Position numbers and translations under genes: made by a program. Of a DNA stretch of 20,000 bases, positions 2,452-19,205 are shown piece after piece. Every line of letters starts with the position of its first letter. Within the stretch, counting starts at the first letter, position 1. Under the pieces are notes generated by a model, which was given only the letters and a program-made list of their open reading frames with translations, ran no database searches and had not been told where the DNA came from. Source of the DNA: an uncultured virus (IMG/VR IMGVR_UViG_3300036715_001160) (taxonomy: Duplodnaviria; Heunggongvirae; Uroviricota; Caudoviricetes); IMG/VR virus record IMGVR_UViG_3300036715_001160, one strand, 5' to 3'.

Positions 2452-4656
2452 TTATTTTAAATTTTTAAATGGTGATCTGTTAAATTTTTGATTTTCACCT
2501 AATCCACTTCTACCCATATGTCTAAAAGGACTACTCTTTAAGGTATACAAATTTTTTGAATTTTCCAATTTTTTACTTGCCTCATCTCTCACAATTCTTT
2601 TTGTGTAACCCATATTGGCTTGTTGAATTTTAAGAAATGAAACTAATGCAGCAAAAGCTACTAACCTATCCACGTTGAGTCCATCTTGATAAGCCTGCAT
2701 TTCTTTCATTAACATTATATCCGGTATTCTTTCTACACCATAATGTATTTTTACAGTAGTACCATCATCTTTCTGTATATGATCTATCTCTTCAGTTAAA
2801 AAATCTTGAGTATAACTGATCATATGATTCTTGAATAGCACACCTGTATTTCTCCATCCGTATTCCTGGAATACATTTGCATTAGATCCTAAATCTTTTA
2901 AGAATACTATTTTGTTTCTTGGTACAAGATATCTTTGTTTCTTTCTTGATATCATGTGATTTATAAATTGAGATATGTTATTCTCTACTATAGTCCATGC
3001 ATTATACCATTCTATTATTAACTCTAATCTCTCATGTGTTTTATTAATATCATCAAATCTTCCGCACCATGCTGCTACAATTTTATCTCTTTCTATAAAT
3101 GTCTCAGCCTCACCATTAGTAACCTTAGTTACTTCAACTGGAGCTTTCATTATATATATGGAACATAGTGAGTCTGAGGTAGTTGTCTTTCCCTCTGCAA
3201 CAGGGTCAATACTACCATAGTACATTCCAAATGTAGGATCTGGTACCGGTCTTTCCCATACTACTAATGTACCTGTTTTATCTTCTGTCTTTTTAGATAT
3301 AGGAAACTCTGCTATTGGTAATTTATTAGTAGCTTTTACTTTTACTTTACCAGTTTCATCTCTAGATATATCAAGAAACTCTGAAGAGTATTCTTTTTCT
3401 TCTATTCTTTTTATCTGAGCATTTACAAGATGAGGTGGGAACTTAGCCTCTTTTCTAAATGCAAATGCCTCTTCTATATTTCTTGGATGTTGAGATACCT
3501 CAAGTTGATAATCTTTAGGTTCTTTATTTTTCTTGATTTCTTCAAAATATTCATCTAAAGCAATTAATGCTTCTTGGACAAGTGAATTACCATAGATATC
3601 TATATAAGGAGGCATAGACCATTGTTCAGGTATAAATAATCCTGATTCTCCCCATGTATTATCTTTATCTATTAGATTAGTTTTAACTGGATATATATCA
3701 TTACTGATTGGATCAAGTATCATTTTTTTTAAAGGACCACATTGATCAAGATCTCCTACTGATCCTGCAGCAATAAATAATCCTGTAGTAATCATACCAG
3801 ACTTAAGTGCTGGTTTAATATATCCAAAGGTTGTATCCATCTTGGGAGCAATTCCTGCTTCCTCATGAAAAAAGAATTTTACCGGACCCCCTACACCATT
3901 TGTTGGATCTTTTTCAAAAGACATACCTTGCATAGTACCTTTAAGTCCTATTTCAGCTTTTCTATCTCCTTTTCTTATCTCAATTTTTTGTTGCCACATC
4001 ATTATTTTATCTGGAGACATAGGTCTATACCATGCAGTATGTTCATTTAAGAATGCTGCATACTCAGATAAAAACTTCCATGTACCTTTCTCATTGATAT
4101 AATCTTTAAGTGATGCACCCATTTTTAATGTGACCCCTGCTTCAAACCATAACTGATTAATGAGTTTACCTGCATGAAAATATGAACTAGCTATCTGTCT
4201 TTTTTTAAGAATAGCTACGTGCATGTAGTTTATTTCTGCAAGTATCTCATATAAAGCCATATGATATTGTGCATCTCTTATCTTAGCAAATCCAAATTTT
4301 TGTTCTTCCTTATCAAAAATAGGTAAGAAGTTTAACCACATATAATAATCTCTTGTAAGGAACCAGGTTTTAGGTCCTGATTTAATTATCATACCTAATC
4401 TGCATTTAGCTTTTTGGTCTTCCCAATAGTTAATAAAATCTTTAGATTTAAATGGAGCTACACAATATACTTTTTCTATATTAAATCTTGTTGACTCAGA
4501 TATAAATACTTTATTACTGACATCATCAAAATCATATTCACCAGGCTCTTTAAATAATGCAAACACAAACTCACCAAATTCTTTTCTTGTACCAAAAGAT
4601 GTAGTAGTCCATGTTCCATTATCCCAGGTGGGAATATCCGTGTACATATTTTCCAT
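2452..4656 (-). CDS. terL: Terminase large subunit
   Basis: 734 aa. ATPase motifs LKKRQIASSY (Walker A-like) and FFHEEAG (Walker B); RNase H-like nuclease motifs GSIDPV, IVENN, DRLVAF; adjacent to portal. Confidence 0.93.
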   Translation of the reverse strand: MENMYTDIPTWDNGTWTTTSFGTRKEFGEFVFALFKEPGEYDFDDVSNKVFISESTRFNIEKVYCVAPFKSKDFINYWEDQKAKCRLGMIIKSGPKTWFLTRDYYMWLNFLPIFDKEEQKFGFAKIRDAQYHMALYEILAEINYMHVAILKKRQIASSYFHAGKLINQLWFEAGVTLKMGASLKDYINEKGTWKFLSEYAAFLNEHTAWYRPMSPDKIMMWQQKIEIRKGDRKAEIGLKGTMQGMSFEKDPTNGVGGPVKFFFHEEAGIAPKMDTTFGYIKPALKSGMITTGLFIAAGSVGDLDQCGPLKKMILDPISNDIYPVKTNLIDKDNTWGESGLFIPEQWSMPPYIDIYGNSLVQEALIALDEYFEEIKKNKEPKDYQLEVSQHPRNIEEAFAFRKEAKFPPHLVNAQIKRIEEKEYSSEFLDISRDETGKVKVKATNKLPIAEFPISKKTEDKTGTLVVWERPVPDPTFGMYYGSIDPVAEGKTTTSDSLCSIYIMKAPVEVTKVTNGEAETFIERDKIVAAWCGRFDDINKTHERLELIIEWYNAWTIVENNISQFINHMISRKKQRYLVPRNKIVFLKDLGSNANVFQEYGWRNTGVLFKNHMISYTQDFLTEEIDHIQKDDGTTVKIHYGVERIPDIMLMKEMQAYQDGLNVDRLVAFAALVSFLKIQQANMGYTKRIVRDEASKKLENSKNLYTLKSSPFRHMGRSGLGENQKFNRSPFKNLK

Positions 4657-7695: not shown

Positions 7696-7854
7696 TTATC
7701 TATTTTTAATTGTAAAGTTTAATATGGTCAACATGTAAAAGCTTCTATCAATATCAAATTCAATAGTGAATAAGTCTAAAGCTCCAAGACGGATTCTTAC
7801 ACAGGCTTTATCCCATTGTTTATTTTTTATCTTCCAAGCATTTCTTAATTTCAT
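7696..7854 (-). CDS. Small hypothetical protein (52 aa), not in the ORF track
   Basis: MKLRNAWKIKNKQWDKACVRIRLGALDLFTIEFDIDRSFYMLTILNFTIKNR; ATGA overlap with the stop of 7851..8453; fills the gap up to the terminator. Confidence 0.7.
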   Translation of the reverse strand: MKLRNAWKIKNKQWDKACVRIRLGALDLFTIEFDIDRSFYMLTILNFTIKNR

Positions 7855-8453
7855 ACTATTACTAGATCTTTAGATTCTATTAGTGTATAAGTAAAGTGAT
7901 TACCGTGTATTTTTTCTGCTATTTTACAGATCTTCATAAACTCATCAAAGTCTCTTACTCTTTTAAATACTTGACATCCTTCTGACCAGTTTTCTACCCA
8001 TGTAGAATTTTGACCTGCTTTGTGGATATTAATACCAAACATACCATTATCTCTTATTACTTCATCAAATGTAAGATCTTTATTATGATCTCTAAAAATA
8101 GTTACAGTACCATTTCTTTGACATAAGGCTTCATATTTACCTTGATGTTTATCAATTGAATATACGCCTCTGTATTGTCCTGGAATAAGTTTTGCTGCAC
8201 CTTTTGGGTTATGATACTCCATTACACCTTTTTTACCTGGCTCAGTTGTATTCATCCATTCATGATATTTCCAAATACCTTTATCATCTTTATATGATAT
8301 TGTAATTAAATCATCAAATACATTAGTTACTTTTTTACCAGTAGAACTATTACGGACACCAACAATATTAACATCATAACCTTTATTTGCATTATCTTCA
8401 AACCATTTATAACCTTTTGAAATAACAGCATTTCTAATTTGACTTAATATCAT
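7851..8453 (-). CDS. YkuD/L,D-transpeptidase-like peptidoglycan enzyme, putative second endolysin
   Basis: 200 aa. GINIHKAG-x8-WSEGCQV matches the H...SxGC catalytic signature of the YkuD/Tlde1-like fold; PGQY motif; sits in the lysis region. Confidence 0.6.
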   Translation of the reverse strand: MILSQIRNAVISKGYKWFEDNANKGYDVNIVGVRNSSTGKKVTNVFDDLITISYKDDKGIWKYHEWMNTTEPGKKGVMEYHNPKGAAKLIPGQYRGVYSIDKHQGKYEALCQRNGTVTIFRDHNKDLTFDEVIRDNGMFGINIHKAGQNSTWVENWSEGCQVFKRVRDFDEFMKICKIAEKIHGNHFTYTLIESKDLVIV

Positions 8454-9051: not shown

Positions 9052-9498
9052 TTATTTTTTAATGTATAAATCTGCTTCTTTTCTTCTTCTTTTTAATAAT
9101 CCAGGAAGTAACTTTCCACCTCCTGTAACATAATGGTTTATCCACCAATCATAGATAACCTCATCAGTAGCCTTTTGATTAATTAATCTAAATAAAGCTT
9201 CTGAACTACCACAATTCCAGCAAAAAGATACTAGTGCATCAAATTGGTTTTGGTTTAAAATAACCTTTATATTCCTATCTACAGTAGCTTCATACTTAGG
9301 AAGCAACTCTAAAAATAATTCATTAGCTCTTTCTTGAGTAATCTTATCACCTAATTTAAATTTGCTGCCATCTTTCCTAGCTGTGTTTCCATACCCAATA
9401 GTTATTGGTAATCCACCAGTTCCAGGATCAACATAAGCTTTTAACTTACATCCTTCAAATCCCTTAATTAGGTCTATGCCTTGTTGTGAAGTTTTCAT
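9052..9498 (-). CDS. Endolysin, GH24 phage lysozyme
   Basis: LIKGFEGCKLKAYVDP...TIGYGNT (E-x8-D...T triad), NQNQFDALVSFCWN, LPGLLKRRRKEA. Confidence 0.95.
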   Translation of the reverse strand: MKTSQQGIDLIKGFEGCKLKAYVDPGTGGLPITIGYGNTARKDGSKFKLGDKITQERANELFLELLPKYEATVDRNIKVILNQNQFDALVSFCWNCGSSEALFRLINQKATDEVIYDWWINHYVTGGGKLLPGLLKRRRKEADLYIKK

Positions 9499-16990: not shown

Positions 16991-17007
16991 TATATACTAT
17001 AATATAC
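16991..17007 (-). promoter_or_regulatory. Putative phage late promoter GTATATTA-TAG-TATATA
   Basis: Third copy of the motif, 21 nt before the ATG at 16970 and just downstream of a terminator. Confidence 0.5.
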
Positions 17008-17020
17008 AAAATAATTATAT

Positions 17021-17053
17021 AAAAACAAAATCCTTAAAAATAATTCAAGGATT
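17021..17053 (-). terminator. Intrinsic terminator
   Basis: AATCCTT...AAGGATT stem followed by TTGTTTTT, just after the HEXXH gene. Confidence 0.7.
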
Positions 17054-17065
17054 CTTTTGAGTAAT

Positions 17066-17527
17066 TTATCTTTTAAAGAATTGTTTTTTAGGACTTTCCT
17101 TTTTATCAAAGTCTAACTTCTTAATAATCTTATTAGCTTCATCCTCTGCAAAAGTAATAACCTCTTCTTCTTTATCTTTTATATTCCAGTTATTAAGTAA
17201 GATAGCCATATGCATAGTCTCATGCATAACTGCTGTAGCTTTTTCAGTAGTATTATATCTTTTAAATGTACCAAGGTTTATAAACAAGAATGGTTTGTAT
17301 GGATCCTTTGCAGTTAACTTCTTATCTGCAGGATCATAGTTAGTTAATCCATAAAGATAAACACCATTACCTTCATCTCCTTTTTTAGGAGTAGTCTTAT
17401 CTACCTCTTCTGCTTGTGCATCCTTCCTATTCAACCCATGCATTTCATCAACCTTATAGTAATCAAATATCTCTGTAGCATTATTACCTGCAAACAGTAT
17501 ATATTTTCCCATGTCAAATTTTTTCAT
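17066..17527 (-). CDS. Zincin-like HEXXH metallopeptidase-motif protein
   Basis: 153 aa. VMHETMHMA followed by EEE; own promoter (TATATTTG 17551-17558) and terminator. Confidence 0.7.
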   Translation of the reverse strand: MKKFDMGKYILFAGNNATEIFDYYKVDEMHGLNRKDAQAEEVDKTTPKKGDEGNGVYLYGLTNYDPADKKLTAKDPYKPFLFINLGTFKRYNTTEKATAVMHETMHMAILLNNWNIKDKEEEVITFAEDEANKIIKKLDFDKKESPKKQFFKR

Positions 17528-17563
17528 AAAATAAATTTAAATCATCATTACAAATATATATAT

Positions 17564-17652
17564 AAAAACAAAATCCCAGATTAATTTTCTGGGATTTCCT
17601 TACCTAGCTAGTCAAATAAATAGCTTAAATCAGAGAATGGTTGTTTTAGCTA
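17564..17652 (-). ncRNA. Candidate small RNA 1 (AGGTAAG + terminator scaffold)
   Basis: Promoter-like TATATTGC (17655-17662), no ORF, GCTAGGTAAG, then hairpin AAATCCCAGA/TCTGGGATTT and TTGTTTTT-type tail. Ends approximate. Confidence 0.55.
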
Positions 17653-17677
17653 ATGCAATATATAAATAATATTTTAA

Positions 17678-17899
17678 TCAAATATACTTTTTTAATTTTT
17701 TATTTTTAATTTTTTTTGCTTTATGTATACTCTTTTTAGCAGAGCTTCTTGTATTAATCATTTTGTTTTTAACTCTTAAGTCTTCCTTAAATACAATCTT
17801 ACTACGCATTGCCATATCATCATTGTGACTTCCTCCTTGATTATAGTTAGGACCAACTGATGCACATGAATACAATAATAATATCAAAAGCCATTTCAT
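17678..17899 (-). CDS. Small lipoprotein
   Basis: MKWLLILLLYSC lipobox signal; very basic C-terminus. Confidence 0.65.
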   Translation of the reverse strand: MKWLLILLLYSCASVGPNYNQGGSHNDDMAMRSKIVFKEDLRVKNKMINTRSSAKKSIHKAKKIKNKKLKKYI

Positions 17900-18192
17900 T
17901 TCTTTAACTCAGCTATTCTTCTTTTTAAATATACTTCAGCTTTTTCCAGATCCTCTAACTCTTTAGCAGCATCTTTTTTTCCAGTTCTTGCCAGATACTT
18001 AATTACATTACCTAAGTAAAAATCTTTATCAAGTCCCCATGCTTCTAGTACATCAAATAATGCATATTCATTATTTGGTTTTAGTACAGGCTTAGGAGTT
18101 GTATACTTAAAAGAATTTGGTAATGCATTATCATAATATCTATTACTTCTTTTCTCATTATAGAGATCACAAAGTTTATCTATATCTACCAT
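17896..18192 (-). CDS. DUF3310 (SaV-like) domain protein
   Basis: FYLGNVIKYLARTGKK...EDLEKAEVYL signature. Confidence 0.8.
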   Translation of the reverse strand: MVDIDKLCDLYNEKRSNRYYDNALPNSFKYTTPKPVLKPNNEYALFDVLEAWGLDKDFYLGNVIKYLARTGKKDAAKELEDLEKAEVYLKRRIAELKK

Positions 18193-18476
18193 ACTATTGC
18201 AATATCATATTCACTTACCATCAACTTAATACCTCCATCAACTTCAATTGCTTCTGCATTCTTGATAGAATTAACACCAATGTAAACTACATCACCTGCC
18301 TCTAAAGTTTTAACTTCTTCACCAACTGCATACACTGTTAACTTGGTCCACTTCTTCATGTCCTCAGTATCCATGTGTGCTTTATCAGCTTCACTTAATT
18401 CAATCACAGATTCTTTTCTTTCTGGCTGACTGATTAATACTCTACGTCCCTTAAGACTTTTAATTGCTTTACTCAT
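18186..18476 (-). CDS. groES: GroES/Cpn10-like co-chaperonin
   Basis: 96 aa. LKGRRVLI...VYAVGEEVKTLEAGDVVY...LMVSEYDIAIV matches the Cpn10 pattern. Confidence 0.8.
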   Translation of the reverse strand: MSKAIKSLKGRRVLISQPERKESVIELSEADKAHMDTEDMKKWTKLTVYAVGEEVKTLEAGDVVYIGVNSIKNAEAIEVDGGIKLMVSEYDIAIVW

Positions 18477-18537
18477 AATATTATGTTTTAATTATCCAGT
18501 AAAGATAATAAATTTATTAAACAATTAAAGTTTAAAC

Positions 18538-18625
18538 AAAAAAATAAGTCTAGATTTTTAAACCTAGACTTACCTTAATAACCAATTAAAACAATAACCA
18601 TTATAAATCGCAAAACAATAATGAT
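18538..18625 (-). ncRNA. Candidate small RNA 2
   Basis: TATATTTG promoter 18630-18637, U-rich body without a credible ORF, AGGTAAG running into hairpin TAAGTCTAG/CTAGACTTA and a T7 tail. Ends approximate. Confidence 0.55.
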
Positions 18626-18641
18626 ATCACAAATATAAGTA

Positions 18642-18905
18642 TTATTCAAATACTTTATACATTCTATTAAATTTTTTTTCTGGCATAAAAGAAAATGTAC
18701 CGGCCCAATCCTGTATCACATAGTCCCCCGGTGCTAATCTAATCTCACCATTCATAGTAGTGAGAAAAAAGCTATCAAATTTATGATTGATATAATTAAT
18801 GTGTCCCTCAAAATCCTCATACCCGGAAATCTTAATAGCACATTCTTCTGTACCATCATACTGTATAGCCTCAACACTCTTAGGCCTTTCTCTATATAAC
18901 TGCAT
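18642..18905 (-). CDS. Conserved small phage protein (VEAIQYDG...PGDYVI family)
   Basis: Likely start MQLYRERPKSVEAIQ at 18905 (87 aa), preceded by TATCTTTG at 18925-18932; the track's longer start crosses a terminator. Confidence 0.75.
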   Translation of the reverse strand: MQLYRERPKSVEAIQYDGTEECAIKISGYEDFEGHINYINHKFDSFFLTTMNGEIRLAPGDYVIQDWAGTFSFMPEKKFNRMYKVFE

Positions 18906-18937
18906 AATAAATAATTTTAAGATACAAAGATAATAAT

Positions 18938-19004
18938 AAAAACAAAACCTCCAGATTACTCCAGAGGTTTTCTTACCTAGCAAATTATGAAATGTTATTT
19001 TACT
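18938..19004 (-). ncRNA. Candidate small RNA 3
   Basis: TATATTTG promoter 19009-19016, GCTAGGTAAG, hairpin AAAACCTCTGGA-GTAA-TCTGGAGGTTTT, then GTTTTT. Ends approximate. Confidence 0.6.
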
Positions 19005-19186
19005 AATACAAATATATAATAATTCCCCGGAATACACCTTACCTATAATAAATAAATGCACTTACGGATTTATTGTATGCAGAATGAGGTGTACACATTT
19101 TGTATATGCATGAGATGGAGGTGGGCCCTTATTCAACAACCCCCCGGCCCTTCAGGCCTAGCTGGTACCCCCCATTGTTTAAAGGA

Positions 19187-19205
19187 ATTCAGCTCACAAC
19201 CATTA
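19187..19205 (+). promoter_or_regulatory. Repeated cassette motif 1, ATTCAGCTCACAACCATTA (putative phage early promoter)
   Basis: One of three near-identical 19-mers, each preceding a plus-strand ORF. Confidence 0.6.

Follow-up and report, generated by a model that had tools for sequence, protein, structure and literature searches.

A cluster of short intergenic units in a crAss-like phage

We analysed a 20,000-nucleotide (nt) stretch of DNA (the window) from an uncultured virus of the Caudoviricetes (IMG/VR record IMGVR_UViG_3300036715_001160), in which three short intergenic units on the minus strand each combine a Bacteroidota-type −7 promoter element, a stretch without a credible open reading frame (ORF) and an intrinsic terminator (Table 1). 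The units lie at the head of the minus-strand block, beside a strand switch near 19.2 kb, and early-type small genes run in the opposite direction to this block. We consider it likely, on the whole, that this is a small-RNA cluster read by the host polymerase, in which unit 2 would act in trans as an antisense RNA on a gene for a single-stranded DNA-binding (SSB)-like protein, whilst units 1 and 3 would be host-style RNAs. An earlier note on this DNA had described one family of three units with a common AGGTAAG-hairpin 3′ end, a proposal which holds for units 1 and 3 (class A) but not for unit 2 (class B), a separate family whose conserved part is the 5′ half; the existence and conservation of all three units are confirmed, yet they belong to two different types of RNA.

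The window is part of a low-GC, freshwater crAss-like phage genome. Its terminase (2452-4656) matches PHROG 6681 and shares 22–25% identity with terminases of crAss-like phages; one relative (G002, 106.7 kb) is 98% identical to the window phage, and another (G003) is a complete genome of 121.5 kb with terminal repeats and ORFs of 3307 and 1915 aa, which are very large virion genes. The terminase type and a genome of ~100–120 kb with very large virion proteins point to a distant place among the crAss-like phages. Relatives of the locus were gathered using the 96-aa gene as a synteny anchor (39 loci, followed by the top 80 out of 176 viral loci and the top 80 out of 106 metagenomic ones) and reach down to ~50% protein identity; from these, 133 distinct promoter-to-terminator units were picked without the AGGTAAG motif as a criterion. 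Searches by blastn with unit 1 and by tblastn with the unit 2 target protein returned no cultured relatives.

The promoters, the three AGGTAAG copies (17599, 18569 and 18972, minus strand) and the terminators are all in place, as are promoter-like sites ahead of the downstream genes (17551, 18500-18507 as the variant TATCTTTA, and 18925). No ORF of at least 40 aa belongs to the units, except for a GTG-extended form of the 87-aa gene which reads over unit 3. The idea that these are stand-alone short RNA genes is also supported; they are kept in relatives, have promoter elements of their own and occur as tandem units with no gene between. Singly, the sequence elements are at chance frequency, with AGGTAAG counted five times in the window (3.04 expected; five or more in 34 of 200 shuffles) and the promoter element TANNTTTG 35 times against 32.8, whilst terminator-like sites number 15 against 5.9. 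The combination of promoter and terminator in this cluster is not chance: three long relatives have between them 11 intergenic terminators with a promoter immediately ahead, of which 10 (3, 4 and 3) belong to this one cluster and the eleventh sits behind a gene. Rfam gave no match in the window at the gathering threshold, nor at E-values up to 10, and only sub-threshold terminator-type matches in 18 and 6 related loci and the region. Two metatranscriptome runs, available as contigs, yielded 7 and 6 contigs on neighbouring genes and none on the units; contigs cannot show RNAs this short, so these data are uninformative either way.

Unit 2 mirrors the start of an early gene

In unit 2 the AGGTAAG sequence is incidental: the 7-mer is found in one of eight aligned variants, its TAAG lies inside the terminator stem, the invariant T of TAGGTAAG is missing and the terminator is unlike that of class A. 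The 5′ half, in turn, is nearly invariant across the eight variants. When the class B RNA of the complete genome G003 was compared with the start regions of its own genes, it scored best on the leader of an early gene, and the orthologue of this gene in G002 has a different leader, which matches the window-type RNA. We assembled the leaders of this target gene (55 distinct leaders from the best 80 of 473 viral loci). The window unit 2 pairs with the leader of its own clade over 38 base pairs from −47 to +4 at −27.9 kcal/mol, against a median of −14.1 kcal/mol for the 55 leaders.

The same relationship was found in eight RNA/leader pairs from the same contig (seven distinct RNAs), where the RNA ranked its own leader first of 55 in six cases and third and fourth in the other two, in which it was outscored by leaders with the same seed only; none of 200 shuffles reached the observed energy in any of the eight. 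Two further pairs, linked by dataset number only, ranked their own leader first and third. A 9 × 9 table of RNAs against leaders is block-shaped, the window clade scoring −27.9 and −34.7 on its own leaders vs. −11.7 to −20.3 on others. RNA and leader pair over 25–47 base pairs between about −50 and +5, and this span covers the start codon in nine of ten pairs. In nine of ten pairs, too, the duplex of the transcribed strands is stronger than that of the two opposite strands, with G-U pairs kept in the transcribed orientation.

The seed of the RNA and the tag in the leader switch together by clade: TTTTGCGATT occurs with AATCGCAAAA, and TTTACGGTT with AACCGTAAA. A third combination, AAGGTT with AACCTT, is joined by a common dataset number only and not by a common contig, and a fourth, unrelated in sequence, is present in locus L768. 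Within the whole of G002 the 10-mer tag occurs twice, once opposite the RNA gene and once in the target leader, 10 nt before the start codon; a single tag common to several genes was not seen. Among all leaders of their own genomes, the target leader ranked 1/153, 1/143 and 1/134 (0/12 shuffles in each), 2/126 and, for the window unit 2 on G002, 2/123. Class B and other units whose contigs do not include their own early region gave mostly weak scores on the 55 leaders and are uninformative. Since unit 2 is complementary to the beginning of an early gene of the same phage, and RNA and gene start vary together across relatives, it is probably an antisense brake on that gene.

The target gene is a conserved early gene encoding a protein of 156 aa (P0039), for which no Pfam, PHROG or PDB sequence match was found. 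Its predicted structure is a beta-barrel (pLDDT 81), the nearest named Atlas cluster is Phage_SSB (0.88) and the top Foldseek rows are SSB and PriB. The target is probably an OB-fold, single-stranded DNA-binding protein of DNA replication, with a weak resemblance to SSB and PriB.

As a separate observation, the region upstream of a second early gene (G002:38981-39367, MFSAKF...) pairs with window-clade unit 2 at −30.6 kcal/mol and is not matched by the RNA of G003; it may be a second target or chance.

Class A units carry exchangeable 5′ parts on a fixed end

AGGTAAG stands ahead of 49 of 101 stand-alone terminators vs. 5 of 79 gene-following ones (Fisher P = 1.5 × 10−10, a value which overstates independence because the sequences are related), and those five all have the class A hairpin. 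In 48 distinct ends selected on AGGTA[A/C/G], the preceding T, which was not selected for, is present in all 48, and the full AG follows in 44–45. The scaffold alignment, which consists of the two window units and 42 of these 48 ends (six were left out, two being identical to the window and four near-duplicates or odd ends), has 98.2% of its stem cells paired and 40 both-side changes vs. 9.9 in shuffles. The earlier expectation of variable 5′ parts on a constant 3′ scaffold, which was to be checked in relatives by motif conservation and hairpin covariation, is supported for class A on both counts, with TAGGTAAG fixed beside a covarying terminator. A covariance model of this scaffold locates a pair of strong copies in each of the window, G002, G003 and G004, every one of which is a row of the model's own alignment or closely related to one, and it misses unit 2.

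The 5′ ATTAG(C)TAAAA reported as common to units 1 and 3 is present in both, and on folding is able to pair with the GCTAG before the motif, but it is not kept in all relatives. In the same slot, 5′ parts are swapped among relatives, often with two units in tandem and no gene between; in the more distant relatives the unit 1 slot holds two tandem units, the first of which has TTCTCWG in common with unit 1. Of 24 non-redundant units, 7 have TCAT in the 12 nt that follow the promoter vs. 1.4 expected, a post hoc count for which five motifs and two thresholds were tried. An exact-seed scan for self-targets gave nothing convincing.

Three ideas about class A targets were rejected. That all 5′ parts mirror start codons does not fit the whole 5′ parts, with CAT anywhere in 14 of 32 vs. 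12.2 expected and a start-region score reached by 2 of 32 vs. 1.1. That the TAGGTAAG-type motif is itself the seed finds no support either: in five of five genomes the reversed control is commoner than the motif's complement with ATGA after it. One conserved host match to the motif complement resembled a target, and proved to be intergenic with a 13-codon frame.

Further units of related form were noted. Promoter-TAGGTAAG-terminator units are present on viral contigs outside the anchor set (L070, L071/L152, L078, L079, L082, L102, L104, L136, L146 and L167, with a tandem pair in L152). A structured unit of ~130 nt, ending CCCCAGGAAAG...CCTGGG, occupies the slot before the 87-aa gene in three loci (L005 ~2270-2370, L035 ~1500-1620, L037 ~1500-1620) and is absent from the window. 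Units of a third type, class C (L021:2197, L026:3973, L290:3460), have a pyrimidine-rich 5′ end (CACCTCCTTTT, CAACTCCTTTTT), which we take to recall the anti-Shine-Dalgarno end of 16S rRNA; they might base-pair with those few host mRNAs in which a site of this kind is used, and no target in their own genomes scored above shuffles. In the window itself, a fourth TAGGTAAG lies at 19038-19045, just upstream of the unit 3 promoter and with no terminator behind it, perhaps the remnant of a lost unit.

Bacterial counterparts of the class A end

In species-representative genomes, TTAGGTAAG was found ahead of a terminator-like pattern at 56 loci, of which 19 have record titles that place them in Bacteroidota, and several of these Bacteroidota loci stand alone behind a promoter (Fibrella group; Crocinitomicaceae). 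The class A model matches 26 of 61 genomes of the family that includes Crocinitomicaceae and Fluviicola records; these are mostly ordinary terminators, and the five best matches have TTAGGTAAG. This family has RNAs with TTTTCATAAGTAGTAG, then TAGGT(T/A)AG, then a terminator, and the loop GATGCCAGTC is common to one phage class A terminator and one host terminator. Looser host patterns occurred at or below the counts of reversed controls and were used only for finding examples, and a FopS-like seed pattern, tried in viral contigs, had a terminator behind it in 0 of 80 loci.

Two groups of bacterial RNAs stood out in these scans. The first is a set of uncatalogued FopS-like RNAs with a TCAT-type seed and a TAGGT(T/A)AG end in the Crocinitomicaceae family and Fibrella group (L497, L500-L503, L516, L517, L527; L205, L207, L246, L256; L696, L722). 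The second, present in the Crocinitomicaceae family as well, is a conserved stand-alone promoter-to-terminator RNA of ~70 nt with three to four tandem AGGTT repeats, found in 11 of 201 Flavobacteriales genomes (L485-L495, in G008, G035, G057, G067, G133, G153, G157, G173, G194, G203 and G209), which is a candidate decoy for an RNA-recognition-motif (RRM) protein. Three tandem-AGGTT loci scanned against Rfam gave nothing, nor did the scanned loci of the RNAs with TTTTCATAAGTAGTAG.

RRM_1 genes were found in three of three Bacteroidota genomes tested and in neither of two phage records. The Bacteroides RRM protein RbpB binds the UAGG-containing GUAGGAUA with a KD of 5.1 µM (10.1101/2021.04.27.441718). 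By analogy, it is plausible that the class A end serves as a docking handle for a host RRM protein.

Feature map and neighbouring genes

Table 1 Features of the small-RNA cluster and its surroundings (window coordinates).
Feature	Position	Strand	Basis
Unit 3 promoter, Bacteroidota −7 element TATATTTG	19009..19016	-	sequence; kept in relatives
Unit 3, putative class A small RNA: variable 5′ part with UUUCAUA, then TAGGTAAG, then terminator	18937..19004	-	ends inferred
Unit 3 covariance-model match	18937-18983	-	56.7 bits; row of the model's own alignment
Unit 3 TAGGTAAG motif	18972..18979	-	single-stranded, adjoining stem
Unit 3 intrinsic terminator	18944..18971	-	hairpin; family-wide covariation
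Promoter-like element TATCTTTG of 87-aa gene	18925..18932	-	sequence
87-aa gene, PHROG 419/1810, function not known	18642..18905	-	PHROG match
Unit 2 promoter, Bacteroidota −7 element TATATTTG	18630..18637	-	sequence; relatives
Unit 2, putative class B small RNA with an antisense match to the 5′ leader and start codon of an early OB-fold (SSB-like) gene of the same phage; that gene lies outside the window	18538..18625	-	ends inferred; pairing computed
Unit 2 seed TTTTGCGATT, in loop of weak 5′ hairpin	18606..18615	-	folding; alignment
Unit 2 intrinsic terminator; left arm includes TAAG of AGGTAAG	18545..18572	-	hairpin
Promoter-like variant TATCTTTA ahead of 96-aa gene	18500..18507	-	sequence
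96-aa gene, GroES/Cpn10-like (lead only)	18186..18476	-	no Pfam match; Atlas cluster at 0.96, 14% of members with Cpn10
98-aa DUF3310 gene	17896..18192	-	family match
73-aa gene, function not known; end overlaps unit 1 promoter region	17678..17899	-	ORF; family searches
Unit 1 promoter, variant −7 element TATATTGC	17655..17662	-	sequence; relatives
Unit 1, putative class A small RNA	17563..17650	-	ends inferred
Unit 1 covariance-model match	17563-17610	-	61 bits; row of the model's own alignment
ATTCTCTG, best-kept stretch of unit 1 5′ part; candidate seed, no target found	17631..17638	-	alignment of relatives
Unit 1 TAGGTAAG motif	17599..17606	-	sequence
Unit 1 intrinsic terminator	17570..17598	-	hairpin
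Promoter element of 153-aa gene, joined to unit 1 U-tract	17551..17558	-	sequence
153-aa variable gene	17066..17527	-	ORF; relatives
Terminator like class A hairpin, without TAGGTAAG, behind variable 153-aa gene	17020..17055	-	partial covariance-model match, 27.8 bits, model positions 13-49

The 153-aa gene downstream of unit 1 is missing in 11 of 16 close relatives, where a late-promoter-like site directly follows unit 1, an arrangement not found in the other five. It encodes an HETMH stretch (HExxH-type) and has no Pfam or PHROG match, and may be metalloprotease cargo. The sequence TTTTGTTTTT is found also after the gene-end terminator behind it (17020-17055). Before the structural block, an TGTATATTATAG-type element at 16997-17008 is conserved in close relatives and is a late-promoter candidate. 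At the strand switch, a G-run-rich segment (19115-19175; GGGGGGTACC...GGGGGGTT, minus strand) is kept in relatives and may be a genome end, packaging or origin site. Beyond it, ATTCAGCT occurs on the plus strand at 19187, 19453 and 19717, upstream of each of three small plus-strand genes; it is present in G002 at 25185, 25464 and 25980, whilst G003 is without it there, and it is a candidate promoter of the phage's own early polymerase. Elsewhere in the window, two lysis-type genes lie near each other (7851-8453 and 9052-9498; PHROG 3000/33083, phage lysozyme), and G003 has a different enzyme-like gene in this region.

Comparison with known RNA systems

The closest parallels for the cluster come from bacteria, temperate phages and T4-like phages. 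In Bacteroides thetaiotaomicron, FopS RNAs block the start regions of susC-type mRNAs and bind RbpB (PMC11697453). The phage units share with FopS and GibS a housekeeping promoter, a single-stranded 5′ stretch and an intrinsic terminator; pairing with translation start regions was found in silico for unit 2 and not for units 1 and 3. In the oligos listed in the PMC11697453 supplement, FopS-10 begins GTGTTTTTCATAGTATTAG and has AAGGTT before its terminator; its seed TTTTTCATAG and AAGGTT resemble the TTTCATA of unit 3 and the AGGT(A/T)AG ends. The FopS RNAs differ in being chromosomal and in using a constant 5′ seed against susC-type mRNAs, whereas the phage units vary the 5′ part on a constant 3′ end, and unit 2 is directed at a phage gene. 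The conserved R1 5′ sequence of FopS/GibS was not found in the phage units beyond a 7-nt likeness in unit 3, and there was no Rfam match.

The C4 RNA of phages P1 and P7 is likewise a phage RNA acting in trans on the ribosome-loading region of a gene of its own phage, with a specificity loop that differs between relatives (PMC5320573); unit 2 resembles it in its predicted trans pairing with a leader of its own phage, RNA and leader varying together from one relative to the next. C4 folds into three stem-loops, is released through cleavage by RNase P and regulates an antirepressor of a temperate phage, whereas unit 2 would be a primary transcript with one weak hairpin and a terminator, pairs along the whole leader and has an SSB-like target. 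Neither the three-stem structure nor an Rfam match to C4 was found in unit 2, and its target is an OB-fold protein, not a known antirepressor.

In T4-like phages, PeSL cassettes act as joints between exchangeable modules (PMC2839356, PMC4122927). The cluster, too, has recurring fusions of terminator and promoter where genes are gained and lost; PeSLs flank protein genes and end in a Shine-Dalgarno site, whereas here several modules have no ORF and carry an invariant RNA motif or an antisense region, and tandem units with no ORF between are not followed by the Shine-Dalgarno site and start codon of a protein gene. Among the phage small RNAs reviewed in PMC12197685, VpdS, 24B_1, OOP and aQ regulate phage or host genes, and VpdS competes for a host RNA chaperone; these belong to proteobacterial, mostly temperate phages with Hfq, and the review does not mention crAss or Bacteroid-.

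Proposed mechanism and alternatives

In crAss-like phages, a virion polymerase reportedly transcribes the early genes, with the later ones left to the host enzyme. We propose that the host housekeeping RNA polymerase would transcribe the three units, and that the hairpin loop of unit 2 would first meet the clade-specific tag ~10 nt before the start codon of the OB-fold gene, which lies 6–8 kb away on the other strand. Pairing would then extend through the 5′ leader and the AUG, and less of the SSB-like protein would be translated; the likeliest purpose would be to set the time or the dose of DNA replication after host-type promoters become active. Units 1 and 3 would carry an exchangeable 5′ part on a fixed UAGGUAAG-terminator end, which most likely docks a host RRM protein and stabilises the RNA, and their 5′ parts would probably pair with start regions of host mRNAs, as in FopS, or else the RNAs would titrate the RRM protein.

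Several points weigh against this proposal. Transcription of the three units by the host polymerase is predicted from the sequence. The duplex energies ignore accessibility, and the target of the window unit 2 was read from G002 and not from the window phage itself. On G002, the best leader for the window unit 2 is that of another gene (−30.6 kcal/mol), the SSB-like leader coming second (−27.9), and the best score is equalled or bettered in 3 of 12 shuffles; in G582, where the target leader ranks 2/126, this happens in 2 of 12, and with a shorter leader window (−35..+20) the SSB-like leader falls outside the top three for the RNA of G002. The pairing energy of the window unit 2 by itself is not significant genome-wide. 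As energy alone fails the shuffles in two genomes, the case for unit 2 rests on the same gene recurring across about four seed types, and with only about that many among the relatives the pairs are not independent. The SSB label is weak, the best Foldseek E-value being 0.016 (none ≤0.001) and the best VIA Z 5.1 over residues 1-71. For classes A and C, none of the units tested beat shuffles on leaders of their own genomes, the overall CAT count in 5′ parts is close to expectation, and the unit 3 seed had no conserved target in 151 candidate host genomes (1 of 30 loci at a plausible start).

That no target was found for class A RNAs would also fit their being pure decoys for a host RRM or other UAGG-binding protein, with the 5′ parts as spacers, as would the invariant single-stranded motif at a fixed place and the decoy-like tandem-AGGTT RNA of possible hosts. 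One motif per RNA would however make a poor sponge. Clade-specific cores, for instance TTCTCWG and TTTCATAATTTG, also persist in the 5′ parts, and TCAT is overrepresented close to the 5′ end; we regard a pure decoy as possible but unlikely.

Unit 2 might instead be an immunity RNA, made from a resident carrier-state genome and blocking the early SSB-like gene of both the resident and incoming phages with the same seed, as C4 does for P1 and P7. The clade-specific switches of seed and tag look like the specificity loops of C4 (PMC5320573), and a host-type promoter would need no phage protein. The RNA has a single target, though, seed and tag would also covary by drift with compensation, and nothing here points to a resident state, which makes us doubt this explanation. 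Similarly speculative is a wider scheme in which environmental crAss-like phages would have a two-part RNA layer expressed from host promoters, with a clade-specific antisense RNA, directed at their own SSB-like replication gene, as an RNA-only carrier-state brake and same-clade superinfection immunity, and swappable seeds on the host-derived UAGGUAAG-terminator end silencing host genes via the RRM-protein system.

It is improbable that class A ends are PeSL-like terminator-promoter cassettes, serving as insulators or recombination joints, with the short RNAs as by-products of emptied cassettes. The terminator is fused with the next promoter, genes and units come and go between (including the 153-aa gene, also flanked by a motif-less copy of the hairpin), modular swapping would be explained, and T4-like phages offer a precedent (PMC2839356), but a joint of this kind would not require a fixed unpaired octamer next to a stem that covaries freely, ordinary terminators lack the motif and unit 2 is left unexplained. 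We consider it more improbable still that the match between unit 2 and the SSB-like leader is an old inverted duplication or an AT-rich coincidence without function. Both sequences are A/U-rich and single-genome energies are not significant in two of five genomes, yet the match follows the same orthologous gene through four seed types, leaders of other clades score near the median and the G-U pairs are kept in the transcribed orientation. Finally, that the units encode micropeptides or are attenuated leaders of downstream genes is hardly credible: unit 2 has an 8-codon ATG frame starting at 18601, but its stop codon is lost in close variants and other clades are without the frame, whilst the downstream genes have promoter-like sites of their own and tandem units have no gene between.

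Significance for crAss-like phages and their hosts

Among the publications listed in our literature searches, no small regulatory RNA of crAss-like phages was found. The principle is already known from FopS/GibS and C4; the covarying phage target and the host counterparts of the class A end are worked out here. For the question of how crAss-like phages switch off their early genes and persist beside their hosts, unit 2 offers a named RNA-target pair with natural compensatory alleles, which is testable by reporters without culturing the phage. The TAGGT(A/T)AG-terminator end, common to phage and bacterial RNAs, is a candidate docking site of the RRM proteins that stand in for Hfq in Bacteroidota, and it points to host small RNAs that are as yet uncatalogued.

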